From: a virus
Reading direction: 5' to 3' (one strand)
Virus record (IMG/VR): IMGVR_UViG_3300002920_000061
Span: 8,496 to 72,495 of that record
DNA: 64,000 bases
Shown here: piece after piece, positions 2,996 through 30,896 of the stretch
How positions within the stretch are numbered: position 1 is the first letter of the stretch
Layout of the letters: every line of letters starts with the position of its first letter
Translations under genes and position numbers: made by a program
Notes under the pieces: generated by a model
The model's database searches: none
What the model saw: the letters and a program-made list of their open reading frames with translations, nothing else
What the model was told of the DNA's origin: nothing

Positions 2996-4387
2996 TTAGG
3001 CTAATTGACCAGTAATGTTATCTAAGATCACATTCTTGCGTGGCTGGTACACTGCCAAGCATAAGAATCGGAAGTGCGCCTCAGGCAAGCTAAGATCGCT
3101 AACAGCGAGCTTAAGTTTGCTGTATGGAGCTAACTGATGTAATGCCATTGTGTCTTTTTGTAAGAGGTAAGCAGTTACGAAACCGGGAGACTTATTGCCT
3201 AGGTCAACAAATACTGGGTTACCAGATCCTTGACGGATACGACCGATAAACTTAACATCATTAGCAGATCCATTTTTATTTGAACGATATACGTTGTAGT
3301 ATTGTGCGCCTGAAACAGCAACGATAGTTAAATTAACTGCGTCACCAGTAGTAGTGACGGTTGCAGAAACAGCAGCAGATATAGCTGATTCGCCACGCAT
3401 ATTAACCGCAGTTACTCGGTATTGGTAAGTACCAGCTTCAAGCAATGATCCAGCACCTGTAGTAATAGTAGGTGTATTAAGAGTAGGAGCAGCAGGGCTG
3501 CCAGCACGACTACGAGCAGGTCTAGTCTTACCAGATAAGAATCTGCTAGGCTCAAGTTGGATTGCCCCTGAAGCAGTCCATTGTTGGCGCAAGCTCGCAC
3601 CTGTAGACTCTTGAGGAGATCCAGCAAGGATGATTCGTTCTTTAGAGTTAGCGATCTTGTTGTAAGTTGATAAACTGATTGGGTCAAGGTGAAGACTATC
3701 AGCAGCACCCATGTTCATAGCAGATCGAACTGCGGCATCTTCAATGATAGATTGAGAAAGACCGCCATTAACTGCTAAAACAACAGATTGGTCAGATCCA
3801 AACTCAGCAAACATTAAATCTTGAGTGTTTGACTGGTCGTCAGATTGACGAATCTGTTGGTCAAGACCAACCATGTTTGGAATTTGCGCAACAGCTAATG
3901 GGTTTCCATCAAACTGTCCAGCGTTTGAGAAGTGAGCCTGACCGTGGAAGATATCAAACTCAATATCGCCTGCTAGTTTTTTAGTAGCGTCTTCAGCAGC
4001 ACGATCTTCAGCTTTAACACCATCAAATGGTGTGATCATGTTGGCAGCTATAGTCACTCGACGAGTAGTGCTGTAGTATGCCATAGGAACAACGGCTCGT
4101 ACATAAGAGCTGGTTTCTTCCTCTCCAATTCCGCCTTCAAACTGAGCAGAACCACCAAAAATTCCGTAGTCAAGTTGTCTGTTGAATTGAATCAACTGAG
4201 ACTTGCTATCTTTTACTGCTAGAGACTTTTGCATTTTAATATGCTGGTCTCCAAAAGTTACGTTATGCATTACTGGAGAGAGGTCTTCAATTTGTAACGC
4301 AGCACCTTGCACCAAAGTACTAGGTGCGGCATTTTGAGAGCCTGCTTCCAATGCTTTCATTAGGGATTGTAAATTTTCTGTAAGCAT
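2996..4387 (-). CDS. Major capsid protein (phage K/A511/SPO1-like, with FN3/Ig-like insertion)
   Basis: 463 aa; QGAALQIEDL, DIEFDIFHG, PAAP..YQYRVTAVN.RGES insertion and LAVYQPRKN C-terminus parallel Herelleviridae-type MCPs; follows an acidic scaffold-like gene. Confidence 0.9.
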   Translation of the reverse strand: MLTENLQSLMKALEAGSQNAAPSTLVQGAALQIEDLSPVMHNVTFGDQHIKMQKSLAVKDSKSQLIQFNRQLDYGIFGGSAQFEGGIGEEETSSYVRAVVPMAYYSTTRRVTIAANMITPFDGVKAEDRAAEDATKKLAGDIEFDIFHGQAHFSNAGQFDGNPLAVAQIPNMVGLDQQIRQSDDQSNTQDLMFAEFGSDQSVVLAVNGGLSQSIIEDAAVRSAMNMGAADSLHLDPISLSTYNKIANSKERIILAGSPQESTGASLRQQWTASGAIQLEPSRFLSGKTRPARSRAGSPAAPTLNTPTITTGAGSLLEAGTYQYRVTAVNMRGESAISAAVSATVTTTGDAVNLTIVAVSGAQYYNVYRSNKNGSANDVKFIGRIRQGSGNPVFVDLGNKSPGFVTAYLLQKDTMALHQLAPYSKLKLAVSDLSLPEAHFRFLCLAVYQPRKNVILDNITGQLA

Positions 4388-6814: not shown

Positions 6815-8245
6815 TTATAATTTCAAAGACCATTTGACCTTACCACAATCCCATATTTTTGAATAGCCTAATGATTTAGCCATTTCTGATTCCGTATTGC
6901 CAATAGCACCTTTTTTCAAAAGATACTTCTTTTGACATGATTGCTTTGATAAGCGTACTGGGTTTCCTAGTTTGAAATATGAATAATCGGGTCCTAACTT
7001 TTCAGGGGTCATGCCTAATTCTCTATAGACGTTCCCCTTAGACCACCTATTGTCAGACCAAGACACTAGATAATCAAAGCCTAATTTGCGTGATTCTATA
7101 ATAATTTGCTTTAAAAGCTTCCCAGTGCCTCCAACAACAGCTTTATCAGCAAAACATACCCTACTCAAAACAGCTTCAGATCTGCTTGGCCTGTGGTGTT
7201 TAGAAATAGTGGCGCAAGCGACAATTTCTCCTTCAAATTCCAAACCTAGGGCAATCAGAAAATTGCACGCACTTTGTAAGTGGTGCTGGTTTAGAAAATC
7301 TATCGCTGTCCTTTTATCTAAAAAGACTGTTTTTGTTTTTCTGGCGTATATTTTAGGCAACAGATTAAGCTTTGCCTTTAAGATAGTTTTTATTTGATTT
7401 TTGCGCTCAAACCATTCGTCTTCAAAAATCGTTATTAGCTGTATGCCATTTTTAGCGCACAAATCATGCTTATCTTTGTGATAATTTTTTCCCTTTTTTT
7501 CTTCGGAATGCCAGTACAATCCGCAATATTCTATTGCAATCTTTTTAGAAGGTATATATATGTCTAGTTCCTGCCCATCTAGGATGGTTCGGTTGTTTTT
7601 TTCAATTTGAAGACCTAAAGATTCAATAAAAAGCGATAGTTCGATCTCTCCCTTAGAGCCAAAAGAAGAGCATCGATAACATTTGTGCCCTTGGTCTAAT
7701 GAATTGTAAGTAGTTTCAAACTCACCATGCTTAGAGCATATAGCAACAAATTTGGTTTTGGTATTTTTTATATTTTGATTATCCTTGATAGTGTAGCCAA
7801 GCTCTTTTGCTTTCTTTAAATAGGCATCGTAACTAAGTTGGTTGGGGTGCCCATTGCGATATCTGCATTTTATGCATCCTGTCGAGTTTCTTAGCTGAAA
7901 AGATGTTTTTTTATGTCTATGGCCACATTGACACGTTACGTCGATTTTCATTTTTTTAGAATGACTTTTCTCGTACTCTTCCTTAGTGGTGTGCACTAAA
8001 AAATGGTTCTTTGCAGCAAGGTCTACTAAAGTGTTGTAGGGTATTTTTTGTAATGCTGCTTTTGCTGCTTTGCAAGAAGGGCAACCGGAATTTCTATGTC
8101 TAAAATTAGACCAGCTGGCTTTGAATTCCCCATGTTTTGTACATAACAACGTTATTTTGTTATCTGGACCTGAGTCTGAGATTAATTTATAGCCACGGCT
8201 TTCTGCAAATATTTGTTTTCTTTCAAAAGAAATTTTTATTCCCAT
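6815..8245 (-). CDS. Second endonuclease-GNAT protein with CxKHGEF zinc-ribbon repeats
   Basis: CTKHGEF..CPSC and CSKHGEF..CYRC; ELDIYIPSKKIAIEYCGLYWH; LITIFEDEW; LSRVCF..GGTGKLL..SWSDNRWSKGNVY; start MGIKIS at 8245. Confidence 0.75.
   Translation of the reverse strand: MGIKISFERKQIFAESRGYKLISDSGPDNKITLLCTKHGEFKASWSNFRHRNSGCPSCKAAKAALQKIPYNTLVDLAAKNHFLVHTTKEEYEKSHSKKMKIDVTCQCGHRHKKTSFQLRNSTGCIKCRYRNGHPNQLSYDAYLKKAKELGYTIKDNQNIKNTKTKFVAICSKHGEFETTYNSLDQGHKCYRCSSFGSKGEIELSLFIESLGLQIEKNNRTILDGQELDIYIPSKKIAIEYCGLYWHSEEKKGKNYHKDKHDLCAKNGIQLITIFEDEWFERKNQIKTILKAKLNLLPKIYARKTKTVFLDKRTAIDFLNQHHLQSACNFLIALGLEFEGEIVACATISKHHRPSRSEAVLSRVCFADKAVVGGTGKLLKQIIIESRKLGFDYLVSWSDNRWSKGNVYRELGMTPEKLGPDYSYFKLGNPVRLSKQSCQKKYLLKKGAIGNTESEMAKSLGYSKIWDCGKVKWSLKL
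6839..6922. repeat. 84-bp dispersed repeat, copy 2
   Basis: 81/84 identical to 1370-1453; a second shared block (7032-7065 vs 1563-1596) is 33/34 identical. Confidence 0.95.
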
Positions 8246-8249
8246 GTAT

Positions 8250-8259
8250 AAAAGATTAT
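8250..8259 (-). promoter_or_regulatory. Late motif ATAATCTTTT, 6 nt before ATG 8245
   Basis: AATCTT-TTATAC-ATG; no Shine-Dalgarno visible. Confidence 0.5.
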
Positions 8260-8273
8260 ATCTTACATGGGCA

Positions 8274-8300
8274 TAAAAATAAAGCCCCAATTAAGGGGCC
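8274..8300 (-). terminator. Intrinsic terminator after the tail tube gene
   Basis: GCCCC/GGGGC stem followed by TTTATTTTT on the minus strand. Confidence 0.75.
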
Positions 8301-8793: not shown

Positions 8794-10929
8794 TTATGCA
8801 GTCTGTTGTACTTGGCTAATATCAATAGTTATTGGGATGAAGAATATTGTAGTAGCAAGCTTGATCTCAACTTTAACAGTCATAATTGGACCATTGATAG
8901 TTATGTCTTCATTTTTATAACCAAGAGGAGCATCATCGCTAGAAGCAATAAGTTTCATTCTTCGGTAAATATCCATCTTCTGGGCCAAGAAAGCTAAACC
9001 ATCAGCACGTGTAACATCAGCCAAAGACTTACCAACAAAAGCAGTTTGGTAGCTTTCAGCAAGATCAAGAGCAAGAACGTCAGCAGCATACACAGCTTGT
9101 AGGCTGTTGTAAACAAAGTTTGAATCAATTCCGTATGTAGACTGATCGCTTACCCATTTTACTCCTGCGGTAGAAGATTGTAACAACAGAAGACCAGCAA
9201 GAAGAGCTTGCTCTACATCGCCCGGTGAACCGCTATCAAATCCAGATGGGTCCCGATAGCTGATTACGTTAGCAAGTTTGTTGGTGAATGATTTATAAAA
9301 TCCAGCAGCTTGCATTCCAGCAGCAATACAAGCTGAGTACCAAGGGGCAAAAGTCTTAACCTCGCCCTTAGAATTTACTTGGTCAACATCTTGGAAAGTG
9401 AGGTAGCATCGATAGTGTGCTAACGCAGCAGCTTTTGCTTCAGCGTCAGAATAATTACCTTTATATGATAACATAGCAACTCGATGACGCTTAAGTTTTG
9501 CGGTGCTCATCTTAAGAACGTGGCTTTTAGTGGCAGCGTGAATAGCGTCAATTGTATAAGTAGATAAAGACTCAGTCAAGCCATCAGTAATATCGTCAGA
9601 AGCATTTCGACTGAAAAGAGGTACTACAAAGTTAACAGCAATACCCTCAAGTTTTGTGAGAGCATCAACTATGTCAGCAACCGAAGTAGAACCTTTAGTA
9701 CCACCATTTAAGAAAACAGCAGTAGTCATTGGAGTAGGAAGACCGTCTACATCTGTAGGTGTGAACTCTACAGCAGAGCTTGTTGCAATAGCATCTTTGA
9801 AATTTTTTAAAGATTTTTTAATACGTCCCGGCTTTAAAGAAGCACCAGAAGCGCAGATTCCGATGTTTGTCACCTTATCAAGGTCACGAGGAGACATTTG
9901 AGCACCAAATGTTGTAGCAGAAGCAGAGTATCCGGGTTGTGCTGAGATGTAAGATGCAAGGTCATTCACTGTTGTAAACTGGGTAAGATCGATAGAAAGG
10001 TTAGATCCTGCACCGCCTGTTACAGTAGTAGTAAGTGTATTGCCAGAGATAGAAAGAGTAGCGGTAGTTCCTGCATATCCAATCTCTAGAGCAATCTGAC
10101 CTTTTGCTTCTAATGTCTCGTTTAGGCCAATGTCAGAACGGATAACTGAAACCTCAATTTCTGATTCAGCAGCAGACTTGTAGAGTCCAGCAGTCAAAGA
10201 AAGTGCTGCACTGGTAGAAGATAGGATTTCAAGAGTTTTACCCCAACCTTTTCTATAATTTGAAGGGTCAGGATTTACGGTCAATACGAATGTGTTAGCA
10301 ACAGTGCCAACAGACGCAGAGATGCCAGTAGGCAAAAGAGAGTTAAGCTCAGTGACAAGACCATTAATGTCTGAATGGCTTGTAGCTGTACTGCCAAGAT
10401 TTATAGTGGTGACTGGACCGCCATTCAATCTAAATTCTAATACCGCATTGTTAAGAGCAGTACCAAAAGCAGGTACAACTCCTGATGTAACAGAAGGAGC
10501 GACTTCTAACTGGGTTGCTATCACTTGGTACTTTATCTTGTTCCCATCTTTGCCAAAGTTTTTAGATTTTAAAATTCCGTAGTCTGTATCTACGATTGCT
10601 TGAGCCTTGGTTCCAGCATTGGTCTTAAGGATGTAAACCCTATTAACAGAACCAGTGATATCTGCATCCGCAGAAGGTGCGCTTAATGCACGAAAAGCCT
10701 CAACAATAGGGCCAGCAATGTATTTTTGCTGAACCTGAGAAACCTGATCTGGAGTAAAAAAGTTGTTTTTCAAACTTTCGTTTGCAAAACTTTCTCCACC
10801 ATCAGCCTCACCGATGATTGCAATAACACCAGTGGCCCCAATTCCTACTGGAGTTGATCGAACGTTTTGTTCAAAATAAGCTCCGGGGATAACTGTATTG
10901 ATAAATGATGTAGTAAGTCTGATTGCCAT
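8794..10929 (-). CDS. Tail sheath protein
   Basis: 711 aa; IPGAYFEQ..IAIIGEADGG N-terminus; sheath C-domain AGMQAAG..SFTNK..VKWVSDQST..YNSLQ..FIPITIDI. Confidence 0.9.
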   Translation of the reverse strand: MAIRLTTSFINTVIPGAYFEQNVRSTPVGIGATGVIAIIGEADGGESFANESLKNNFFTPDQVSQVQQKYIAGPIVEAFRALSAPSADADITGSVNRVYILKTNAGTKAQAIVDTDYGILKSKNFGKDGNKIKYQVIATQLEVAPSVTSGVVPAFGTALNNAVLEFRLNGGPVTTINLGSTATSHSDINGLVTELNSLLPTGISASVGTVANTFVLTVNPDPSNYRKGWGKTLEILSSTSAALSLTAGLYKSAAESEIEVSVIRSDIGLNETLEAKGQIALEIGYAGTTATLSISGNTLTTTVTGGAGSNLSIDLTQFTTVNDLASYISAQPGYSASATTFGAQMSPRDLDKVTNIGICASGASLKPGRIKKSLKNFKDAIATSSAVEFTPTDVDGLPTPMTTAVFLNGGTKGSTSVADIVDALTKLEGIAVNFVVPLFSRNASDDITDGLTESLSTYTIDAIHAATKSHVLKMSTAKLKRHRVAMLSYKGNYSDAEAKAAALAHYRCYLTFQDVDQVNSKGEVKTFAPWYSACIAAGMQAAGFYKSFTNKLANVISYRDPSGFDSGSPGDVEQALLAGLLLLQSSTAGVKWVSDQSTYGIDSNFVYNSLQAVYAADVLALDLAESYQTAFVGKSLADVTRADGLAFLAQKMDIYRRMKLIASSDDAPLGYKNEDITINGPIMTVKVEIKLATTIFFIPITIDISQVQQTA

Positions 10930-11604: not shown

Positions 11605-12000
11605 CTATTTTAGTTGTTTTTTTACCTTTTCTTTTTTCTTCAAAGACAAAGTTTCAATAAACATTTTTAGCTTATCAATCCCTTTTTGTCCCATCTTATT
11701 ATCGTATCCTACTTTCTTCATAGAGGGGACTTTAGGGGTCATGCCTAGCTTTGCTTCAGCTTGGGCTTGTTTCTGCTGATGAATTTCTGCTGGAGAGATA
11801 TCCTTATGAAGAACACTTTCTTTTGGCGCTGGTACTTCGCTAGGCGGGGTATTAACTATCATATTGGAGTCATTAATATCCAATGCTATATCATTTGCGG
11901 CCTGTGCTATGCCCTGCTTAGAACCCAAAGCCTTTTTAAAAGCTTTATATAGTGACTTTTTCAAATTCTCATAAGCCATACAGTAAAGATTACCTGCCAT
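11605..12000 (-). CDS. Small basic protein, candidate internal head protein
   Basis: Start either 12000 (TAATG coupling) or 11979 (6 nt after the late motif at 11984-11993); C-terminal IDKLKMFIE. Confidence 0.55.
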   Translation of the reverse strand: MAGNLYCMAYENLKKSLYKAFKKALGSKQGIAQAANDIALDINDSNMIVNTPPSEVPAPKESVLHKDISPAEIHQQKQAQAEAKLGMTPKVPSMKKVGYDNKMGQKGIDKLKMFIETLSLKKKEKVKKQLK

Positions 12001-13007
12001 TAGGTGTTATTCTTCTTATTTCCATCGGTTGTCGTCCATATATCGTTCTCAGTATCCAATGAATCAGGGCTGTCTAGATTAGAATAAATCTTGATCCCTG
12101 AACGAAATCCGCTTTCAGTTTCCTCATCAATTTCAATTGCTTCAATGGTTCTGTAAGGAGTTTTCAGCCAACTATGCTCTACTTGGCCTGTCAGGGTGAT
12201 GTACCTGCTAAACACATTTTCTCCTCCCGGACCATCAAAATTAGGATTCTGTATAAGGTCACTACTACTTACAGAACTTTGCATGAATTGTCTTCCTTCT
12301 AGGAGACTTTCACGATACCTTAAAATTGTATAAAGTACAATCGCGTGCAGCCAAAGCAGGGGCGCTGGATCCCCATGTACATGACAGCCAATAGAATAGG
12401 TTTCTTGAAAAAAGGAATGTTCTCGTCTCGCCTTATAAATTTGATATTTAGGGACTATACCAGCACGAGTAAGGGTAAGGTCAAGGTCTTGTTCAAGACG
12501 GACACCTTCAGTAGTTACTTCTTGGATAATGTACCCGTTGCCAGTGTCTGGATCCACAAGGATTTGACCAGCACGCACACCTCTTTTTTTTATAGTACTA
12601 GGCATAGTAAGTATGCCAGTTGTTGGATCATACGATACAGGAACGAATGGTTTTATAATATAAGGTATTGGCTTACCTATTTGGTTTGGCATCAAAGTTT
12701 CTACTTCAGTAGAAAGATCCCCAAGGTGCTTCATGTCCTCTTTTTCTGAGGATGAACCCAAGGCTATAGTTACACAAGGAAAATGGTCCTTGTCGTTTCT
12801 AAATCTTAAATTTACCTCAATCTTGTTGTTGACAAACCAGTCTTTGGCTGCATCTATTTCTTTTTGGCCATACTTGTTTTTTAATGCAGGTTCTGTTCTG
12901 AAGCTTGCAAAGACATCATCAAGAAGCCATAGGTTTTTTCTCATATCCTCTAAACCTTGGCGGATGGCTTCAGCGATTATGACATCACCAGCAAATATCA
13001 TGAACAA
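12000..13007 (-). CDS. Putative tail completion/terminator protein
   Basis: FPCVTIALGSSSE..FQETYSIGCHVH..VFSRYITLTG pattern of tail-terminator-fold proteins; typical position between neck and sheath; late motif at 13020-13029. Confidence 0.55.
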   Translation of the reverse strand: MFMIFAGDVIIAEAIRQGLEDMRKNLWLLDDVFASFRTEPALKNKYGQKEIDAAKDWFVNNKIEVNLRFRNDKDHFPCVTIALGSSSEKEDMKHLGDLSTEVETLMPNQIGKPIPYIIKPFVPVSYDPTTGILTMPSTIKKRGVRAGQILVDPDTGNGYIIQEVTTEGVRLEQDLDLTLTRAGIVPKYQIYKARREHSFFQETYSIGCHVHGDPAPLLWLHAIVLYTILRYRESLLEGRQFMQSSVSSSDLIQNPNFDGPGGENVFSRYITLTGQVEHSWLKTPYRTIEAIEIDEETESGFRSGIKIYSNLDSPDSLDTENDIWTTTDGNKKNNT

Positions 13008-13034: not shown

Positions 13035-13793
13035 TTATTTTGAATATTTATCCAAGATAGAGGGCAATATTTCATCGTTAAATATCTTTTCTGCCCACTC
13101 TAAAGCTTCATCCATAAACTTTTTTGGCTCTATTCCCGGGTGAATCCATTTTGATCCTTTCATCTTACTACTTACTGTTCTAAATGTCAGGATGTCACGG
13201 CGAATTTTACCAGAGGGCAGTCTTCTTTGATAGATAGTTAAACTATCCAAAGCACCGTGGGATGCTCTTGCACTTGGTTTGGGAGAGTTTATGTCTCTTA
13301 TAGTGTGCAAACGCCCAAGGCGGGGGCTGCCATCAGCATTATATTCAATTTTCTTGTAGGGAATTTTTCTTGCTTTTAGTTCGGCTTTTATCTGGTTAAC
13401 TAACATTAAAGCATTAGCTGAAGTTTGACTTGGCGATTTTCCATGTTCAAATGGTATTGCTTTATACCTAGAGCCATCCTTGGCTATTTTCGCATTCTTT
13501 CGAAGTAGATCCTCAGTCATGTCTCCAGCTTTTCTTCCTTCTTCTAGCCAGAGTGCTGGTTGGTCGAGGCTAACAACCCATATCCCTTGCCCAACCTCTT
13601 GAAATGAAAGATTGTCTAGATATAACTGCCTAGTAGATCGTAGTTTAGATGATGCTAGCTCTTGAGTTTTTGCATAGGTCATAGAAGCTACCTGTTTAAC
13701 CCCTAGGGTTATAGCTTCCTCGACCTGCTTCTTAAGCTCTCCAAACTCTTTAGCAAGAGCTTCGGCGTCTATAAAAAACTTAAGATTGATCAT
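13035..13793 (-). CDS. HK97 gp10-like neck/virion morphogenesis protein
   Basis: N-terminal helices, LWLEEG, C-terminal WIHPGIEPKKFMDEAL. Confidence 0.6.
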   Translation of the reverse strand: MINLKFFIDAEALAKEFGELKKQVEEAITLGVKQVASMTYAKTQELASSKLRSTRQLYLDNLSFQEVGQGIWVVSLDQPALWLEEGRKAGDMTEDLLRKNAKIAKDGSRYKAIPFEHGKSPSQTSANALMLVNQIKAELKARKIPYKKIEYNADGSPRLGRLHTIRDINSPKPSARASHGALDSLTIYQRRLPSGKIRRDILTFRTVSSKMKGSKWIHPGIEPKKFMDEALEWAEKIFNDEILPSILDKYSK

Positions 13794-13810
13794 AAGTGAC
13801 TCTTTTAGCT

Positions 13811-14026
13811 TCAGAAGCGATCATGTGTCGCGTCCCCGCTATTATCCAGTGCCAGCCCTATCTTTGCATCTATGTATTTTATTCTTCCAGTTTGGCGATC
13901 TATAATTTTCATTCTTCCATCAGACGTAACTGCGCCAACAGGAAGAGGTTGTTTTGCGACGTGTTTTGTGGTTTGTTTGGCTGGTAGGCGTCGCAGATTT
14001 ATCCCTATCAGCCTTTCTGCTTTGGG
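13811..14026 (-). CDS. -1 frame extension of the mCpol-like gene (69 new aa after LPK)
   Basis: Open -1 frame from CCC AAA at 14026 to TGA at 13813-13811: AERLIGINLRRLPAKQTTKHVAKQPLPVGAVTSDGRMKIIDRQTGRIKYIDAKIGLALDNSGDATHDRF. Only an internal ATG; fills the 214-bp gap to the next gene. Confidence 0.7.
   Translation of the reverse strand, partial: PKAERLIGINLRRLPAKQTTKHVAKQPLPVGAVTSDGRMKIIDRQTGRIKYIDAKIGLALDNSGDATHDRF
13955..14026 (-). other. Candidate -1 programmed ribosomal frameshift signal (slippery heptamer plus H-type pseudoknot)
   Basis: C CCA AAG (14026-14020), 6-nt spacer, S1 GGCUGAUAGG/CCUACCAGCC (9/10 pairs), S2 UGCGACG/CGUCGCA (7/7), 17-nt A/C-only loop 3. Confidence 0.8.
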
Positions 14027-15069
14027 AGAATCTCCTGCTCCTTACCCTTATGATGCTCAGAGTCGTTCCCAGAAGGCACATAAATTACTTCTTTCTCCTC
14101 TTCCTCAGAAGAGACCCCTTCAGGGCTAATCATTTTAGCCAGCTCAATCATGTTGTAAAGCAGACCAAGAATAGCGGCATAAAGCTCAGGCTTTGTTTCT
14201 TTAATCTGGTCCATTAAATCCTTATTTTGTTTAAACGCATCTAAGTTTGCAGCAATCCTTTGTAGAATTTCCTCGTTCCCATCAGTATCAGCTAGATCAG
14301 CATCCAAGCTGTCTTCTTCTGTGGCCATCTCTGGGTCTACTTTCTCTGTATTTTGGTCCTCTAGATTTTCATCTAGAGCTTCTTCGCCTTCAAGGGCAAT
14401 AGAGGGTTCTTGTTCAAATTCAGAAGGTTTTTCCTGTTGTTGTTCTTTATCATCTTCTTCTTGTTCTTCTTCTAACATTTCTTCATATGGCATATGATCT
14501 TCTGAAATGAAATCTTCAGGCTTCTGAATCATATCCTCTAGTGAAGTCTCATGAGCTTTAGGGTGTTCACTAGACATATCTTGATTTTCATGGTTTTGTT
14601 CATAAGACATGGTGGCCTCAATATAATGCTCATCCATTTTCTTTTGCTCTTCATCAGCAGACCCATCATGCACTTCTTGGTGAGTTCGATTAATAATGTC
14701 CTCCACAGAATGATCGTATCGAACAACTCGGTCTTTTCCTGTAATTTTTGCTACAATCAAAGCTTTTCCAGCTTGGCTTAAACTGTCTCCTAGACCAATA
14801 GAGATTGTATTATTGGTTAATTGAAGATATTTAGCTCTCAAATCTTCAATTTGATCTATAAAAGATTCATCAATCTCCCCAACTATCTCGTCCCCCTCGT
14901 TATTAAAAACCTTTCCAGCAGAATTTTCAATCCATTGGGAGATTAAATTATTTCCATCTCTTATGCGTTTTGACTGAGCGATAAAACCTTCCAAGTCATT
15001 TTGGAGGACTTTTTGTCCAGCCATTGAACCGATATTATCTCCATCTGCAAAAATATAAACTTTACCCAT
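14008..15069 (-). CDS. mCpol-like (minimal CRISPR polymerase, Cas10/GGDEF palm) domain protein with a long acidic tail
   Basis: VYIFADGDNIG..L.ND..NEGDEIV..TISIGLGDSLSQAGKALIVAKITGKD over residues ~1-120, then an Asp/Glu-rich linker and a C-terminal helix. Confidence 0.75.
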   Translation of the reverse strand: MGKVYIFADGDNIGSMAGQKVLQNDLEGFIAQSKRIRDGNNLISQWIENSAGKVFNNEGDEIVGEIDESFIDQIEDLRAKYLQLTNNTISIGLGDSLSQAGKALIVAKITGKDRVVRYDHSVEDIINRTHQEVHDGSADEEQKKMDEHYIEATMSYEQNHENQDMSSEHPKAHETSLEDMIQKPEDFISEDHMPYEEMLEEEQEEDDKEQQQEKPSEFEQEPSIALEGEEALDENLEDQNTEKVDPEMATEEDSLDADLADTDGNEEILQRIAANLDAFKQNKDLMDQIKETKPELYAAILGLLYNMIELAKMISPEGVSSEEEEKEVIYVPSGNDSEHHKGKEQEILPKQKG

Positions 15070-16971: not shown

Positions 16972-17895
16972 TTATTGGCCATCACCTTCGTCAATGTCGC
17001 TCATATTAACCCTAATCTGGGCCGAATTGGGGGCTATACTTTCAGTAGGCTCTTCTCTAACTCTTCGCTTTTCCTCAGGTTTTAGGTTGGACATTTTAGA
17101 ATTGATTTGGTTCTGATAGACATATTCTCTCTGTATGACGGCGTGTGAAGCCATTCTCTCTGGAGATCGAACATCGCCATTAGTTATGTTTGTAATTCTT
17201 ACCTCATTAGGTATTTGGACAACATACCAAAAGGCCTTATATAGATATCTAACAGAGTAGATTCTTCCTCTTTTAGTATCTGGGTCGATTCCGGGATTTT
17301 TTCCGCTAGGCAGCCACCTGATGTTTCCACAAGGAGTAATTATAAAATCTGCACCCTCTTGAAATGTTCTACCCTGACTATCCTCTATGTATTCCATCTT
17401 GCAAATAGGAAACATAGGACGGTTGTCCTGATCAGGTTCGTAATCCATTCTTTGGAAGTTTGGAACTAGAACATCAGCGTTAGGGTCTGCTATGTACACT
17501 CGGTCCCCGGGACTTAGGTAGATTCTACTTCCACCAGCAACCTCTTGACCTTTATCATAAAACCTAGGCATGATTAGCCTAGCTATAGACTCATCTAAAA
17601 AACCACCATCTGAAGACTTCTTTCTATCAGAATTACCCACCATGGTTGCTGTAAAACATCCAGCTTTTTTGTATATAAATCCGTTTGAACTAATTGTGTC
17701 TATACCATCAGATCGTCGATAGTCCCCTTTGTCTTTTAGACCAATAGGCGAAGGAAGTGCTTTGTAGTGTATAAATTGCACGCCAAGAGACGTGACAAAT
17801 TGATCCTGCTTTCGTAGGTCGAATGAGCTCTGAAAGAGATCGCCCTCTCTAGGGATCGTATCTAGTTGTTGGCCCTTTGGTGGACGTTTAGGCAT
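16972..17895 (-). CDS. Putative head-closure (stopper) neck protein
   Basis: Position in the neck cluster; pattern resembles Herelleviridae neck proteins; no exact motif. Confidence 0.45.
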   Translation of the reverse strand: MPKRPPKGQQLDTIPREGDLFQSSFDLRKQDQFVTSLGVQFIHYKALPSPIGLKDKGDYRRSDGIDTISSNGFIYKKAGCFTATMVGNSDRKKSSDGGFLDESIARLIMPRFYDKGQEVAGGSRIYLSPGDRVYIADPNADVLVPNFQRMDYEPDQDNRPMFPICKMEYIEDSQGRTFQEGADFIITPCGNIRWLPSGKNPGIDPDTKRGRIYSVRYLYKAFWYVVQIPNEVRITNITNGDVRSPERMASHAVIQREYVYQNQINSKMSNLKPEEKRRVREEPTESIAPNSAQIRVNMSDIDEGDGQ

Positions 17896-18277
17896 TTTTT
17901 ATAGCCTCCCCAGACTTAATGGCATCGCCTACAGCATGGATTTCCATAATAATATCACTGAGTTTCGACTCTAGATTAGCTTGGTTCTTTATTATCTCCT
18001 TGACTAACCACGCAAAAGCTGTGCGTTTGCTTATGGATTTTGCTTTTCTTGCCAATTTTGCACCAACTATAGTGTCTTGGTGGTTAACCTTTATAGTTAC
18101 AGGAGGAAGTATAATATAACTTGGGATGTCACAAACAGCAGAAAGAAAATTATTAGCTTTTTCAGGATTATCTATCCCTATTTCAACAGTCGAGGCATTG
18201 TCTAATTGAGAAATTAGATCCTCGTTTTCAGAGTATTCTCGCTCTTTCCCATCTAGGTACAATATTTTTACGCTCAT
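17888..18277 (-). CDS. Hypothetical protein
   Basis: Translationally coupled at both ends. Confidence 0.6.
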   Translation of the reverse strand: MSVKILYLDGKEREYSENEDLISQLDNASTVEIGIDNPEKANNFLSAVCDIPSYIILPPVTIKVNHQDTIVGAKLARKAKSISKRTAFAWLVKEIIKNQANLESKLSDIIMEIHAVGDAIKSGEAIKNA

Positions 18278-18834
18278 ATCTTTTTTAATACAGCTTTAGG
18301 ATTATATCGTTTGTTTTCGTGTACAATCCCTGTCTTATCCTCTTCTATAGCAACCATAGCAGCCGCAGCCGTTACAGCAGACATAGCTTGAGCGATATCT
18401 TTAGTGACCACCTTATCGCTCTTAAAAAGAACAAGGTCTGAATCAGTTATATAACCCGGGAAATTAATAACCTCAATCTGGGATTGAGTCAAAACAAAAT
18501 CAACTTCATTAGATTTTCTCAGTACATAAAGATCGTAGCCGCTTTTTCTCATATTGGCAGGTAGTAGATCCGACATACCTGTAACTATGCTTTCCTCACC
18601 AGCTTCGCTCTTCATCATAGCTGGTCTAAACTCAGCAAATGATTTCTCGATGTTATATTTTACTATGGCTGGATGAGAGCCAGCAGCAATCACTTCTTCT
18701 CTTTTCTTACCACGCAGACGTCCAACTGCAATATAAAGTCCACCTCTGGTCTTAACAAGTTTGACTTCGTCTCCGTATAGCTCTCCAATAGAGTCTACAG
18801 ATTCTATTTCGCTGGGTTTGATTTCTATTGACAT
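18274..18834 (-). CDS. Head-module protein rich in K-S motifs
   Basis: Start MSIEIKP at 18834; IEKS, MMKSE, MRKS, LRKS, LFKS. Confidence 0.6.
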   Translation of the reverse strand: MSIEIKPSEIESVDSIGELYGDEVKLVKTRGGLYIAVGRLRGKKREEVIAAGSHPAIVKYNIEKSFAEFRPAMMKSEAGEESIVTGMSDLLPANMRKSGYDLYVLRKSNEVDFVLTQSQIEVINFPGYITDSDLVLFKSDKVVTKDIAQAMSAVTAAAAMVAIEEDKTGIVHENKRYNPKAVLKKI

Positions 18835-18860: not shown

Positions 18861-21044
18861 TTAATAGTCATGATGGTATATTCCAACGATATTCCTCATG
18901 TCCTCATTTGGATGATTAGAGGCAATAAAACCATGATATCCACCTTGCTTAATAAGCTCATGCATCATGTCTATATCCAAAATACCGTTGTTCAACTCAC
19001 GTACCTGTTTTTCGTACCCCATAGGGTCATGACTAATATCATAGATTCTAGCTTCTTCAGGGATCTCTATTACGCATTTTGCACTAGCACCAGAAGCTGC
19101 TATATGTTCAGGCTCGGTTCCAGCAATGTAGTAAAAACTGTGTGGATGAGCAGTGCTCACTATATTCATGCTAGTTTGCTTGTTTTCTTCTTTTTCTTCT
19201 GGTTGTATTTCCAATTCTGCCTTATTCATTTGGCCAAATCTAGTTAAATGCTTAATTTTATCCATCTCACTAGCTGCAAGCTTTTTAGGGGCTAGCTGTT
19301 GGCTATAACGCTGTTGAGCACGTGCTTTTGCTTCCTCAACCTTACCACGCCCACGAAGATTAATTAATGAATCTGGGCTGTTATCTTTAAACCATCCAAC
19401 TGATGGATGGAACTTAAGCGAACCCTCACGGATTTGTTCGACACGCTCCCTTGTTTCAGGAGTCATTAATCTTGATTGTCGATCATAAAATACCTTTTTA
19501 CCTGTTGAATCTTTACCTTCAACAAAACGATAGCCTTCATAGTCAAGTGCCTTTTCATTCTGCTTTACAGGCTTTGTGGCTCTGTTAGCAGGAAGTCCAA
19601 GCTCTCTTCTAATTGGGTTTTCTACAGACATAGGCTGGATTTCCCCATATGTCTTTTTTTGTTGCATATGTCCATATTTCTTCTGAGACTCTCCCCAAAG
19701 CTCATCCATATGTTCTTGAAAGGCCGCAGGATTCATGCCTTCTGGAGCAAGATAAAGATGGGCAAGTTCATGGACAGCCGCATCTGGTGAGGGCTGGGTC
19801 TCAAGTCTTCCTGATCTCCAGTCAGGTTTAGGGTCTGTCCTTTTAATGCCTTTTTTCTTGTATTGCTCAAGAAGTTTTTTCTCTTTACGAACGCCTTCTG
19901 GTGAGAATATATTATAAGCTGGTTGGTTGTCTTTATCTTCTCTTAACTTTCCAGAATTGTCTCGCTTTCCTTCCGCTATTTCCATTGGCATACCAAACTT
20001 TTTTTGAGCGAAGTTTCTGATTTGTTGCATCATTTTTATTCGTTTATCTGACAAGCGAGGGGCATTTGCATCTGTGCCAAATATTTTTCTTCTTTGTTCC
20101 CTGACGTTTTTAGACTTATCTAAATCCTGTTGGGCCATTTTTTCAAGAGCCTCTTCAGCCTTAATCATAGCTCTGGCTGTAAAGTATTTGGCCATTGCTT
20201 CAGCCTCGTTTTTAGACATATTAGGATACTTACTTTGGATAAATTTCAAGAATTTCTCAAAGTTAGGAAGTTTTTTAATATCTTTTTCGATAGATTCTGG
20301 AACAAGGGCCGCCCCACCCATTTTGGCAGAAGGGGCCGTTAGACCAGAGTCTGCGGTAATAGTTTTTTTAACACCATTATAGCTGCTCATTGTAGAGCTA
20401 AGATTTTTATTAGGTTTTGCAACATTTTGAGCTGTTGGCAGTTTTAATTCCCTAACGTTTTCTTTTGACATTCCTACTCCTAGGTTTTCTGACTTTGTAA
20501 AATCTAAAATACTCTCTTTTTTCGAGAACTTAGCAGGGTCGTAAAGTTCGGCCACAGCAACTTTATTGCAGGCCGCAGTGGTGATTGTCACTTTTCTAGC
20601 TAGTGCTCTTGTAATTTCTTGACCTTCTTTGCTAAGTTTTGAACCTTCTATGGAAAAATTGACCACATTTAACCCTGACCGATTTTGTTGTCTGGCTATA
20701 TGGTCATATTTAAGCATGGCGGCAATTTCCTGAGCACCTTTGTGGCCTACACCATCAAATAGCTCGCCCATAACATATACATAAGGTGCTTGGGACTTAT
20801 GCCAAAAATAAAGCTCTTCGGGGGTTTCGCAGTCTTCTTCGCTGAAGATTTTTTTGGCTTTTAAAATTTTCCCCACAATTTGGTCAGGGACTTCGTTTTT
20901 ATGCTCATGATTAAATATTCCATCACGCTCAAGCGATGAGACATCTAAGCCTCTAATTGAAATCCTTTCTCCTGAACTATCTAGATGCTCAGAAGCGGCT
21001 ATTCCGTGAATTAATGTACCTATAGGCTTAAATTTAGGGTCCAT
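18861..21044 (-). CDS. Prohead protease with C-terminal cargo domains (HExxH zincin-like; possible ART-like)
   Basis: IHGIAASEHLDSSGE..FNHEH..FSIEG..ACN protease core (~1-175), then AVHELAHLYL and a final FYY..PE..IYD..DP..GYHG domain; late motif at 21098-21107. Confidence 0.8.
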   Translation of the reverse strand: MDPKFKPIGTLIHGIAASEHLDSSGERISIRGLDVSSLERDGIFNHEHKNEVPDQIVGKILKAKKIFSEEDCETPEELYFWHKSQAPYVYVMGELFDGVGHKGAQEIAAMLKYDHIARQQNRSGLNVVNFSIEGSKLSKEGQEITRALARKVTITTAACNKVAVAELYDPAKFSKKESILDFTKSENLGVGMSKENVRELKLPTAQNVAKPNKNLSSTMSSYNGVKKTITADSGLTAPSAKMGGAALVPESIEKDIKKLPNFEKFLKFIQSKYPNMSKNEAEAMAKYFTARAMIKAEEALEKMAQQDLDKSKNVREQRRKIFGTDANAPRLSDKRIKMMQQIRNFAQKKFGMPMEIAEGKRDNSGKLREDKDNQPAYNIFSPEGVRKEKKLLEQYKKKGIKRTDPKPDWRSGRLETQPSPDAAVHELAHLYLAPEGMNPAAFQEHMDELWGESQKKYGHMQQKKTYGEIQPMSVENPIRRELGLPANRATKPVKQNEKALDYEGYRFVEGKDSTGKKVFYDRQSRLMTPETRERVEQIREGSLKFHPSVGWFKDNSPDSLINLRGRGKVEEAKARAQQRYSQQLAPKKLAASEMDKIKHLTRFGQMNKAELEIQPEEKEENKQTSMNIVSTAHPHSFYYIAGTEPEHIAASGASAKCVIEIPEEARIYDISHDPMGYEKQVRELNNGILDIDMMHELIKQGGYHGFIASNHPNEDMRNIVGIYHHDY

Positions 21045-26157: not shown

Positions 26158-27978
26158 TTATGTCCTTTCCATGTCTTCGTCTAGGTAATCTTGAATCATC
26201 ATTTTTAATATGTCCATAGTGTATGGTTTTGTAGCATAATAGGCCTTAACAGCCGCAGGGTTTGTTTGCATTAAAATCTGCAGATTTTGGATAAAGAAAG
26301 GATCTCTCTTATATTTTAAGAGAGGGTCTGCAAGAGCAACAGGGCTTTTCATAAATTCCGATATTACGGTCGCAACATCTACATATTTATCTACTATGAC
26401 TTGGTAGCGTTCGTTCATTGGAACTTTACCAGCCATTCTTTCGCCTACAGGTTTCTTGTCAACATCAGCCAATACTTGGTCATAATCCATATGTATTGGC
26501 ATATCTTGCTGAAGGCGTAAAGACTCTTGCTCCCTAGACTGGGCATCCAAGCCAGACAGCTCTATAACGCAAAGTTGAGCAAGTTCTGGGTCAATGATGT
26601 TGAAAAGCTTCTCATTCAAAAATGATTGAAACTGTAAAATAAGAGGCCTTAAACCTGTATCGCGAGCAGCAGTAAGTTTGAACTCGTTTGAGCTTTCAGA
26701 TAGCGTCTGCTGATTCGTACCTCGTGAAAGATGACCATAACCCGGAAGCTCATCTGGCGACATACTGAAGGTAGAAAGTATGTTTCGAGCAACAGAGTCA
26801 TACAAGAACTGGAACTCTCCATCCCCTGAGCTTGAAACCATTGGAGTCCAGCCAACCTCATCCTCTTTTCCAATACCAAAAACAGGAACCCTGAAAGCAT
26901 TACCTACATTGTTGATAGAGGCCATGAAATCCTGTTTTAATTGGTTTAGTGTATTTTGGTCAAGCTCTTCTGATTTGATAACTAAGATACCTTTTGCCGC
27001 TCTTCCGTTTTGAAAATAAAGCTTGTTATAGGCATCAATTGATAAATGGGTCGTAATTGAGCTAATACAAGTGTCGATTGGGGTTACGGGATATCCATTG
27101 TGATCAATATCGTTTGAAGGATAGAGATTGTGAACAATAAGCTCATCTGGAGCAAATGCCTGCTTAGGCATACCATCTATAACTTGAACATACGCATACT
27201 CGTCTTTTTCAAAAATCTTAGAGTCAATCCTATTTCCTGTAACTTGTTCTAGAAGTTTGATTCCAGCTTGCCTTAAGCCTGTCGCAGACTCTCCCTTTTT
27301 TACTGTTTTATAAATTGTCCCAGCGTCAACAGGTCTGAATCTGTTAAATTTCTTCGGACGATCTTTAAGATCTCTTGGGTCTCCGTCATCCATATCTTCG
27401 TAAACAATCTCAGTAGCAAATCTTCCCAAAGAAAGACCGTCTATAGTTTGTAGATAGAAGAATTCTGAAAGACTCATCTTTTCATTATCATTTAAGCCTT
27501 CTGTGTGGCCGCAATTAATGAGTATTTTCTTGAATCTCTCAATACGATCTCTAATCTTAACCATCTGTTCGGGTTTGATGTGTCCCTCAAATTCTGATTT
27601 TATAGAGATGTTAATACCGATATCGAATCGGTCTCGCTTGATATGCCCAAACATGGACATAGTGTTTGCTCTAGCTCTTAAAATAGAGGCCACAAGGTGG
27701 TTCTGGACACGTACAAGTTTTAATACAGAATCAGGCAAAAGCCTCTTTTTAAGCTTGTAAACACCAGCAAAATTATCATTAGATACTGGATCTTCTGTAA
27801 ATCCAATTCTTGGAACCGAGTTTTTCTTGGCCGTACCCATTGCCCTTTTGATGGCGTAAGTAAGTGGCCCCTCACCTTCATTTTTCATTAGGTTGTTTGC
27901 TTCAAGAACAGCAGCGTCTATTTCGCCTGCTGCAAATATAATTTGTTGTTTTTGTTTATTTTTTTGTTCTTCTGACAT
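26158..27978 (-). CDS. Portal protein
   Basis: DGLSLGRFATEIV, PVDAGTI, GYPVTPID, YFQNG..KGILV, VPV, MSPDEL, LRPLI portal pattern. Confidence 0.9.
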   Translation of the reverse strand: MSEEQKNKQKQQIIFAAGEIDAAVLEANNLMKNEGEGPLTYAIKRAMGTAKKNSVPRIGFTEDPVSNDNFAGVYKLKKRLLPDSVLKLVRVQNHLVASILRARANTMSMFGHIKRDRFDIGINISIKSEFEGHIKPEQMVKIRDRIERFKKILINCGHTEGLNDNEKMSLSEFFYLQTIDGLSLGRFATEIVYEDMDDGDPRDLKDRPKKFNRFRPVDAGTIYKTVKKGESATGLRQAGIKLLEQVTGNRIDSKIFEKDEYAYVQVIDGMPKQAFAPDELIVHNLYPSNDIDHNGYPVTPIDTCISSITTHLSIDAYNKLYFQNGRAAKGILVIKSEELDQNTLNQLKQDFMASINNVGNAFRVPVFGIGKEDEVGWTPMVSSSGDGEFQFLYDSVARNILSTFSMSPDELPGYGHLSRGTNQQTLSESSNEFKLTAARDTGLRPLILQFQSFLNEKLFNIIDPELAQLCVIELSGLDAQSREQESLRLQQDMPIHMDYDQVLADVDKKPVGERMAGKVPMNERYQVIVDKYVDVATVISEFMKSPVALADPLLKYKRDPFFIQNLQILMQTNPAAVKAYYATKPYTMDILKMMIQDYLDEDMERT

Positions 27979-28976: not shown

Positions 28977-30896
28977 CTAATCAGTGTTCCAAAATATCTT
29001 TCTGTTTTTTATTTTATCATCGATTTGGGATGAAGAAGACTGGGTGGCCCTTTTATAAATTTCCTGCTTCATAAGTTCCGTATTGGCGTTTTGGGCTATC
29101 TGGGCTAGGCTATTAGTATTTTGGATTGTTTTTTGCTGGATGGTCTTAGGCTCTATATTTTGGCCTGAAAGTGGTTTTGAAGTGCTTGTAGCAAATACAT
29201 TCTGACCAATATACCTTAGCGCGTCCATTATATCTGCGTATTCTTCATCATCTGGGGTGGTTGTTGGATTCCCTGCCATATCTAATTGAAAGTGATGGAC
29301 CTTGAACCCCTGTACAATTTTTTCGTTTTCAGGGGTGGCCAAGACCAAAAGCCTCCTAGATCCTGTAGAAGTTACAATCTGACTTCTGATTGCCTCAATA
29401 CCGCCTAGAACATCCTTTTTAAAGTCAGGCACCACTACATGGGCAGCTATCTGTTTTAGACGCTTTTTAAGCGTTTTTATGTTTGCTGGGGCCGCGTTAT
29501 CGCAAAACCAACGACCTATGTAGTATTTTTCTTGGTAAGATGCGCAAACCTCAACAAAATCATGAATCTCAAGACCCGGGCTGCCATAAACATCTATAAT
29601 AAAAGAATACCCTGAGGCAGTGACTGCCATAACCACTATAGTGCTTTCATGGGTATATCCCCAGTCGACACCAGCATAGAATTTTGCTCCAATATCGTGT
29701 AGCATACTTACGAATTGTGTAAGATTTGCATCTTCTTTTTGTTCGCCAGTTACGATTTCCCAAGCCTTGGGGATAGACACTATGTTCCCATTTTGTTGTG
29801 TAGCTTCAAATCTTGGATAAATTAAACCCTTAGTTGAAGGCCTCCAACACATAAGCTGGGCCTCTGCCATATCTGGTGGGATCTTTTTGAAGCTATTAAT
29901 AACTGATTTAATAGGCTTGTAAAGAGTTGATTTAGTAGACTTTGCCGTTAATGGCTTGTCTGCAAGTCTGCCCTTACAAACAGCAACCAGAGAACACTCT
30001 ACGCAACCCGGGTGTACTTTGACCTTTTCCCATTCTGTTTTTTGGGCTTCTGGAAGTGCCTCATAATCACTTTCAAAAGAAGATCTCAAAGGAAGCTTCC
30101 TATGCACGTAAAGTTCTACCTTGCTTCCATCTTCATTTGGTTTATGTCTTTCTGGTGGGCATCTTTCTGTTACATCTATTATATTCCATTTCTTTATTAT
30201 TTCTCCAGTAGTACTTGCAAGATCGATCTCCCTCTGCATCATACCGAAAGCAAACTTTCGTGTGGAAAGCTTAACTGTGATGGGAAAAGTTCCTCTTTCC
30301 ATGCCGGGAATCATTTTGGCTTCGTCATAGGCCTGAGGGTCACGAACAACATCCACCTCATCAAGGAACATTATAGGTACGTGCTCTGAGTTTGCACCCT
30401 GTAACGTACAGATGATGACTGTTATATATGGGGAATTGCCTTGTGGTGTTTGGAATTGAATTTTTGTCTTTGAATCGCCAACTTTTACCCAACCATGATG
30501 GTCATAATAAGGCTTTAGCTTTACAAGAAAAGACTGAATATAGCTAATAGCTTTACTACTTTGCGATGCAATGGCAGCCATATGAGCAATAGATAGCTGA
30601 AAGTGTGTAAGTATTAAAACCTCAAGTATAGAGCTAGATAATGTCTTGTATGCCTCTCGAGCTGAGAGCATAATATAGCCCGGGATGTCCTCCCCTTTGT
30701 TTAGCTTCACAGCTTCATATATGCTCCACATTGCATCTATTGGATTACTATTAGAGTCAGGATCTACCGTGTCAGAAGGTAAGCGTATGCCTAAATAGGC
30801 ATAAACCCATTCTTCCAAATCCTTAGGGCTTTCTAATACCTGAAGGAAGAGCGCTTTTTTTAGCTCTTCAGCTTCCAACTCAGTCTTAATCTCCAT
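28977..30896 (-). CDS. terL: Terminase large subunit
   Basis: SAREAYKT (variant Walker A), IMFLDEVD Walker B, STRK motif III, AGVDWG nuclease motif, DIMDALRY. Confidence 0.9.
   Translation of the reverse strand: MEIKTELEAEELKKALFLQVLESPKDLEEWVYAYLGIRLPSDTVDPDSNSNPIDAMWSIYEAVKLNKGEDIPGYIMLSAREAYKTLSSSILEVLILTHFQLSIAHMAAIASQSSKAISYIQSFLVKLKPYYDHHGWVKVGDSKTKIQFQTPQGNSPYITVIICTLQGANSEHVPIMFLDEVDVVRDPQAYDEAKMIPGMERGTFPITVKLSTRKFAFGMMQREIDLASTTGEIIKKWNIIDVTERCPPERHKPNEDGSKVELYVHRKLPLRSSFESDYEALPEAQKTEWEKVKVHPGCVECSLVAVCKGRLADKPLTAKSTKSTLYKPIKSVINSFKKIPPDMAEAQLMCWRPSTKGLIYPRFEATQQNGNIVSIPKAWEIVTGEQKEDANLTQFVSMLHDIGAKFYAGVDWGYTHESTIVVMAVTASGYSFIIDVYGSPGLEIHDFVEVCASYQEKYYIGRWFCDNAAPANIKTLKKRLKQIAAHVVVPDFKKDVLGGIEAIRSQIVTSTGSRRLLVLATPENEKIVQGFKVHHFQLDMAGNPTTTPDDEEYADIMDALRYIGQNVFATSTSKPLSGQNIEPKTIQQKTIQNTNSLAQIAQNANTELMKQEIYKRATQSSSSQIDDKIKNRKIFWNTD

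Follow-up and report, generated by a model that had tools for sequence, protein, structure and literature searches.

A candidate dnaX-type programmed -1 frameshift cassette near the end of a phage mCpol cyclase gene

The copA gene of E. coli carries the slippery heptamer C CCA AAG with a pseudoknot downstream, and its shift yields a short chaperone by early termination; in phage lambda, G/GT slips on G GGA AAG, where stimulatory structure is slight or absent. The -1 frameshift of copA is efficient (PMC9548414), and C_CCA_AAG has been reported as highly shift-prone in E. coli (PMC5009743). In E. coli dnaX, whose products tau and gamma share their N-terminus, a Shine-Dalgarno-like (SD-like) element lies 9-14 nt upstream of an X XXA AAG-type heptamer, at the spacing that favours a -1 shift, and a stem-loop follows after a spacer of ~6 nt (PMC5009743). 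The dnaX shift, on A AAA AAG, truncates the protein to gamma; a 'reversed' arrangement has been reported for a few bacteria, and such polarity reversals lie one base change away (PMC5009743). In the late gene G/GT, slipping by -1 shortly before the ORF ends adds a C-terminal domain at a fixed ratio (PMC5009743).

The protein closest to the one described here is OptS of the Panoptes system, the mCpol protein of the solved structures 9nwn and 9mnr. Bacterial OptS is ~125-130 aa long and is encoded beside a 2TM-beta or CARF-TM effector. It works as a dimer or tetramer whose protomers share active sites, and its catalytic aspartates are D6 and D57 (PMC12657218).

We analysed a stretch of 64,000 nt of viral DNA, here called the window, which is part of a 74-kb IMG/VR contig. 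An mCpol gene lies in its minus-strand late block, which includes the following genes:

28977-30896, minus strand: terminase
26158-27978, minus strand: portal
14008..15069, minus strand: zero-frame mCpol gene, 353 aa (ORF 15069..14008)
13035..13793, minus strand: gene 3' of the cassette, 252 aa, phrog_16819, a conserved downstream neighbour
12000-13007, minus strand: tail-terminator-like gene
8794-10929, minus strand: sheath
2996-4387, minus strand: major head protein, 55% identical to its counterpart in Myxococcus phage Mx1

The phage, an uncultivated one, is placed near Mx1 by its capsid protein only. A phrog_16819-type protein is also next after the cassette in the related loci L021-L023, L048 and L060 (L-numbers denote related loci throughout). 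Neither blastn nor tblastn of the cassette region matched any of 50,697 isolate phage records, and the gene is found in no isolate phage there. The structural module also holds two large homing/HNH endonuclease genes (1346-2893 and 6815-8290, minus strand; phrog_3339/559, E 1e-85 to 1e-94), one adjoining the major head gene and the other sitting between the sheath and head genes. PHROG and Pfam searches of a 727-aa ORF at 18861-21044 (minus strand), termed a prohead protease polyprotein in a separate preliminary note, yielded nothing with an E-value of 0.001 or below; the corresponding place in Mx1 is occupied by a 1239-aa 'putative prohead protease'.

The 353-aa product is predicted to be a member of the mCpol (PF18182) nucleotide cyclases, with a profile score above the cut-off and both catalytic aspartates kept. 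Its N-terminal mCpol palm domain (residues 5-118) is joined by an acidic linker to a helical C-region, which is conserved, and the protein ends in an acidic tail of variable sequence. Residues 5-118 match the Pfam family at E 2.4e-15 (57.4 bits against a curated cut-off of 26.4), and a family profile built from 25 homologs matches the two OptS/mCpol structures over the whole domain at E ~1e-15. D6 and D57 of OptS align with D9 and D60 here, D60 being invariant in the alignment of the 25 homologs (A1). The N-terminal ~120 aa are thus homologous to OptS; unlike the short bacterial protein with its effector, the domain here heads a phage protein of 353 or 419 aa. No Panoptes-type effector (2TM-beta or CARF-TM) was found among the neighbours of the gene by PADLOC, Pfam or PHROG, and in place of the adjacent effector gene that marks a Panoptes system there are portal, sheath, tail-terminator-like and head genes.

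The tail of the protein is where the frames meet. In A1 its sole invariant residues are P349-K350, and the zero frame ends GAG ATT CTC CCA AAG CAG AAA GGC TGA, with a slippery heptamer three codons before the TGA. The elements of the putative cassette are:

14038..14043, minus strand: SD-like AAGGAG, 11 nt upstream of the heptamer, anti-SD pairing -8.2 kcal/mol
14036-14032, minus strand: second AGGAG
14026-14020, minus strand: slippery heptamer C CCA AAG, which fits X XXY YYZ when read in the zero frame
14014..14019, minus strand: 6-nt spacer CAGAAA
14004..14013, minus strand: 5' arm of stem 1, GGCUGAUAGG, which includes the first zero-frame stop
13979..13988, minus strand: 3' arm of stem 1, CCUACCAGCC, which in the -1 frame encodes L-P-A of the conserved RLPAK motif
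14010-14008, 14007-14005 and 13999-14001, minus strand: zero-frame stops TGA, TAG and TAA
13814..14020, minus strand: -1-frame extension of 69 codons (AERLIG...THDRF), with G14020 read twice
13811..13813, minus strand: -1-frame stop TGA

The -1 frame opens just 5 codons 5' of the heptamer (TAA 14044-14042) and has no ATG, GTG or TTG ahead of the conserved domain in the window; the ATG of the next gene (13793) begins 17 nt past the -1-frame stop. The predicted products are 353 aa and 350+69 = 419 aa, and the tryptic peptides predicted within the -1 extension include LIGINLR and IGLALDNSGDATHDR. A preliminary description of this locus had given the heptamer, spacer, stops, stems, loops, 69-codon -1 frame and both product lengths as they stand here, and all were confirmed to the base. 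The features of the dnaX type are present together: an in-frame heptamer, a conserved -1 ORF with no start of its own, a stem-loop 6 nt 3' of the heptamer and an SD-like element 11 nt upstream of it. We consider it highly likely, from these signals, that a programmed -1 ribosomal frameshift cassette of the dnaX type is located near the end of the mCpol gene, and one message very probably gives the 353-aa and the 419-aa proteins by a -1 slip.

Conservation of the arrangement carries most of the weight. We gathered related loci by a profile-driven scan of viral and metagenome contigs together with look-ups by protein, which gave ~70 loci beyond four close relatives. In the four close relatives the 69-aa extension is 66-68% identical over its full length, always in the -1 frame and behind an unchanged heptamer. 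The HMM of the extension domain matches in ~45 loci (E 1e-26 to 1e-36, locus-scan E-values being relative to the candidate sets), and in 37 distinct loci, which are not phylogenetically independent, the same domain of ~70 aa is encoded in the -1 frame, downstream of a slippery heptamer that is in the zero frame. The heptamer is CCCAAAG in 27 of these, CCCAAAA in 6, GGGAAAG in 2, and AAAAAAG and AAAAAAA in 1 each, all of them shift-prone, and the zero-frame stop follows 2-6 codons on. The residue ahead of the proline varies (L, D, A, G, S, F, I, N), while the last base of its codon always equals the X base of the heptamer.

The same domain also occurs covalently joined to mCpol. It is fused in frame at the C-terminal end of the mCpol protein in L021, L022, L023 and L038. 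When the domain profile was searched against 1.84 billion cluster representatives, it was found only at the C-terminal end of ~18 long proteins or in short -1-frame ORF fragments; seven of the long fusion representatives were scanned with Pfam, giving an mCpol domain in 4 and no Pfam match in 3. The preliminary description had asked whether the heptamer and the -1 ORF persist in homologous loci, and both are kept in the 37. It had also taken an in-frame fusion in homologs as evidence against the shift; such fusions do exist, only in lineages that lack the frame offset, and they support a single polypeptide. Its core reading, a programmed -1 shift at C CCA AAG giving 353 and 419 aa, is strongly supported by the 37 loci and the natural fusions.

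Two putative stimulators flank the heptamer. The upstream one, the SD-like element, was absent from the stimulators listed in the preliminary description, and across the family it is conserved 8-12 nt upstream. With the anti-SD sequence and the tRNA-Lys set taken as typical, the family mean of anti-SD pairing has its peak, -5.7 kcal/mol, where 8-mers end 9-11 nt upstream of the heptamer, against about -1 in the remainder of the preceding 90 nt. A pairing of -4 kcal/mol or lower is reached in 33 of the 37 loci; the element is missing from the two GGGAAAG loci and from two others. The region is rich in Glu and Gly, which raises the background of GGAG-like words, and the positional peak at 9-11 nt argues against this richness as the source of the signal.

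The downstream stimulator is stem 1, which in the window has 9 of 10 pairs with one A.C mismatch and starts 6 nt downstream of the heptamer, the hairpin having a predicted energy of -13.2 kcal/mol. In most lineages the hairpin starts 5-6 nt past the heptamer. The 50 nt 3' of the heptamer are more stable than ~94% of windows in the locus itself, the median over 27 loci being ~98%, and in 24 of the 27 this stretch is among the top ~10% in stability; weak hairpins were seen in the closely related L030, L040 and L054. RNAalifold returned no consensus on the 26-sequence alignment, because stem registers differ between lineages, and counts of pairs in the named structures replaced it. By this count stem 1 is 68% paired in the 26 sequences, against at most 47.5% for slid partners, and its covariation score is 0.274, against at most 0.154 for slid controls, a value that none of 500 shuffles reached. 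In the clade of 15 sequences to which the window belongs, pairing in stem 1 amounts to 90%, with the invariant A.C mismatch as the sole exception, and a U-A pair is replaced by C-G as a compensatory change. No Rfam family was found over 13700-14200.

From these signals and the conservation of the -1 domain we infer the following mechanism. A ribosome whose P and A sites carry CCA and AAG would be held by two elements, first by the upstream AAGGAG, pairing with 16S rRNA 11 nt from the heptamer, and second by the stem-loop beginning 6 nt downstream. A fraction of ribosomes would slip back one base to CCC AAA and then read the -1 frame. Unshifted ribosomes would stop three codons on and release the 353-aa form, and shifted ones would add a 69-aa basic beta domain to give the 419-aa form. 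Both isoforms would share the catalytic mCpol domain. As OptS forms a dimer or tetramer with shared active sites, short and long forms plausibly co-assemble, and the efficiency of the shift, or the fixed ratio of isoforms, would determine the number of subunits per oligomer that bear the basic domain. This domain may act as an anchor, a targeting signal or a regulator.

Compared with the described systems, the cassette is most like that of E. coli dnaX, with the same order of elements and a shared N-terminus of the products; unlike dnaX of E. coli, where the shift truncates, the shift here would extend the protein, in the manner of the 'reversed' arrangement, the heptamer is C CCA AAG rather than A AAA AAG, and the gene is a phage mCpol gene. 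With copA it has in common a -1 frameshift, predicted here from the sequence; the copA product, though, is a short chaperone made by early termination, and here an SD-like stimulator is present and the pseudoknot is unproven. As in lambda G/GT, a slip near the ORF end of a late gene would add a C-terminal domain; unlike G/GT, the mCpol gene belongs to another family and is not placed between the genes for the tail tube and the tape measure, and its extension has no match among chaperone families.

The alternative that survives best concerns the stimulator rather than the shift: the frameshift would be real, and an H-type pseudoknot would drive it, stem 1 and the SD-like element being insufficient alone. 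The additional elements in the window are:

13989..13995, minus strand: candidate 5' arm of stem 2, UGCGACG, inside the stem 1 loop
13955..13961, minus strand: candidate 3' arm of stem 2, CGUCGCA, in the His-Val-Ala codons of the extension
14003-13996, minus strand: loop 1, 8 nt
13978-13962, minus strand: loop 3, 17 nt (there is no loop 2)

In the window stem 2 is fully paired (7/7) with loops of 8, 0 and 17 nt that are sterically feasible, just 1.7% of loop shuffles (a fraction of 0.017) match the downstream 45 nt as well, and the RNAfold minimum-energy fold includes the helix. The helix is kept in the window, L074, L075, L076 and L006, and partially, with one C-G to G-C flip, in L078; E. coli copA, moreover, pairs an identical heptamer with a pseudoknot. 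Against this, the helix is missing from L072, L077 and L013, loop-shuffle tests are unremarkable for most lineages, and family-wide stem 2 is 48% paired, within the 34-57% of slid controls (26 members). In the 15-sequence clade it is 72% paired, the invariant pairs joining the CG of an Arg codon to the C-G of His-Val codons, all of them codons that the protein sequence constrains, and the wobble base of the Val codon breaks a pair in 3 of the 15 sequences. Of the pseudoknot stimulator that had been proposed for this locus, stem 1 is supported, being conserved and covarying, and stem 2, no better than slid controls family-wide, is still a candidate. We doubt that the shift depends on a pseudoknot. 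The structure, unproven as it is, appears not to be a feature of the whole family, the full stem 2 being seen only in the nearest relatives; that it forms and matters within the sub-clade of the window is a tentative suggestion.

It is far less probable that the 69-codon ORF is a separate small gene, translated from a non-canonical start or by termination-reinitiation at the CTGA overlap, with AAGGAG as its ribosome-binding site. An SD-like element does lie shortly upstream, a CTG overlaps the TGA stop in the clade of the window, and in some contigs gene callers place an ORF of 44-96 aa at this position. A GTG, TTG or ATG is present in the linker in 5 of 26 loci; in the other 21, however, no canonical start occurs between the upstream -1 stop and the conserved motif. 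The distance of the SD-like element is fixed to the heptamer and not to any start codon, and reinitiation needs no heptamer, yet five kinds of heptamer are kept at one site while neighbouring residues vary. In many in-frame homologs, moreover, the domain is covalently C-terminal to mCpol. The recurrence in 37 loci, together with the fusions, makes an independent gene very unlikely.

That the gene is a single 419-aa ORF broken by a mistake of sequencing or assembly, or by an indel that recently made it a pseudogene, is for practical purposes excluded by the comparison: in-frame versions of the architecture do occur in other lineages, but 37 distinct contigs, which come from many samples and several assemblers, share the -1 offset, with protein identity falling to ~30%, and the heptamer, the stop 2-6 codons on, the SD-like element and the hairpin are all retained. 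Transcriptional slippage was rejected, the A run being just 3 nt in 27 of the 37 loci, as was stop-codon readthrough, the extension domain sitting in another frame.

Programmed -1 shifting into the extension is thus our preferred reading for the window, and the family holds further layouts of the same parts. In L021 and L022 (4380-4470 in each) the extension is in frame with mCpol, giving proteins of 722 and 721 aa, and both loci retain AAGGAGG together with C CCA AAA in the reading frame. Only three codons precede the stop of their -1 frame, and the product of a slip would be the short form, with the reversed polarity, that of E. coli dnaX. Four distinct contigs have the extension in the +1 frame (L015:3790-3860, L060:2480-2600, also seen in L061, L062:270-400 and L063:1210-1340), with a conserved layout of an SD-like element, 9-11 nt, CC CCA CAG, a 6-nt spacer and a stem-loop. 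At CC CCA CAG the P- and A-site tRNAs can re-pair the first two positions after a -2 move, and the SD spacing fits a backward shift. We read these loci as a probable -2 form of the cassette, in preference to a +1 site; -2 frameshifting is known in phage Mu and arteriviruses (PMC5009743). One locus, L017:2130-2180 (identical in L053), has the -1 layout with neither a canonical heptamer nor an SD-like element (GGC CCC CAG GAA ACA GCC CAG TAG), and may reflect either a real mechanism or an error of contig assembly.

The extension itself is a basic domain of ~70 aa with the motif (K/R)LPxKxTTxH ... G ... KxxD ... I(D/N) ... G in an alignment of 32 sequences (A3). AlphaFold2 on A3 predicts a small domain rich in beta-hairpins (mean pLDDT 81). 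Sequence searches with Pfam, PHROGs, PADLOC and PDB found no relatives, the ESM Atlas gave no usable hit, and no match to the model reached E 0.001 when PDB and BFVD were searched with Foldseek. WW domains were the top PDB rows of Foldseek at E ~2 and were discounted, and weak profile matches to NHL/BNR propellers were set aside as beta-hairpin noise. The K-A-E junction that the shift would create had been likened to a motif of the head proteins; it is confined to the clade of the window, other loci having PKASG, PKDVK, GKVEQ and so on, and so seems a by-product of the heptamer and stem 1.

Within 17173-18320 of Mx1 (OR576727.2, L081), in the head module and directly after the prohead protease, a gene annotated 'nucleotide cyclase' encodes 243 aa with an NGGDEF motif. 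Compared with the mCpol family this protein is a remote palm-domain relative only (hhalign probability 78%), and the extension domain is absent from the 417 unannotated bases behind its gene.

The public gene calls for L074-L080 leave ~200 nt uncalled after the mCpol gene or place there a 58-61-aa ORF from an internal start. With such calls the long isoform is systematically missing from protein databases.

In the literature on mCpol and phage we found no description of a recoded mCpol gene, and the word 'frameshift' is absent from the main Panoptes papers. The mechanism proposed here is of the known dnaX type, and the mCpol gene family is not described as recoded. The locus would add a well-supported recoding family outside tail chaperones and transposases, one whose longer product annotation pipelines overlook, leaving a ~200-nt gap or a spurious ORF of 44-96 aa in related contigs. 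The natural 'experiments' within one family, namely five heptamers, a probable -2 site, a reversed layout and fusions, suit asking why a fixed ratio of isoforms is selected.

Throughout a clade of Mx1-like phages, the virion genes include one for a Cas10-like cyclase whose catalytic residues are intact. As a highly speculative reading, a phage-made and possibly virion-delivered cyclic-nucleotide synthase might feed decoy nucleotides that silence Panoptes-type guards or other nucleotide signalling, the basic domain anchoring a set fraction of it to the capsid or neck, in a ratio important enough to be reached by -1, probable -2 and reversed layouts. After the Panoptes papers of 2025, a phage-side role in cyclic-nucleotide warfare is directly testable.
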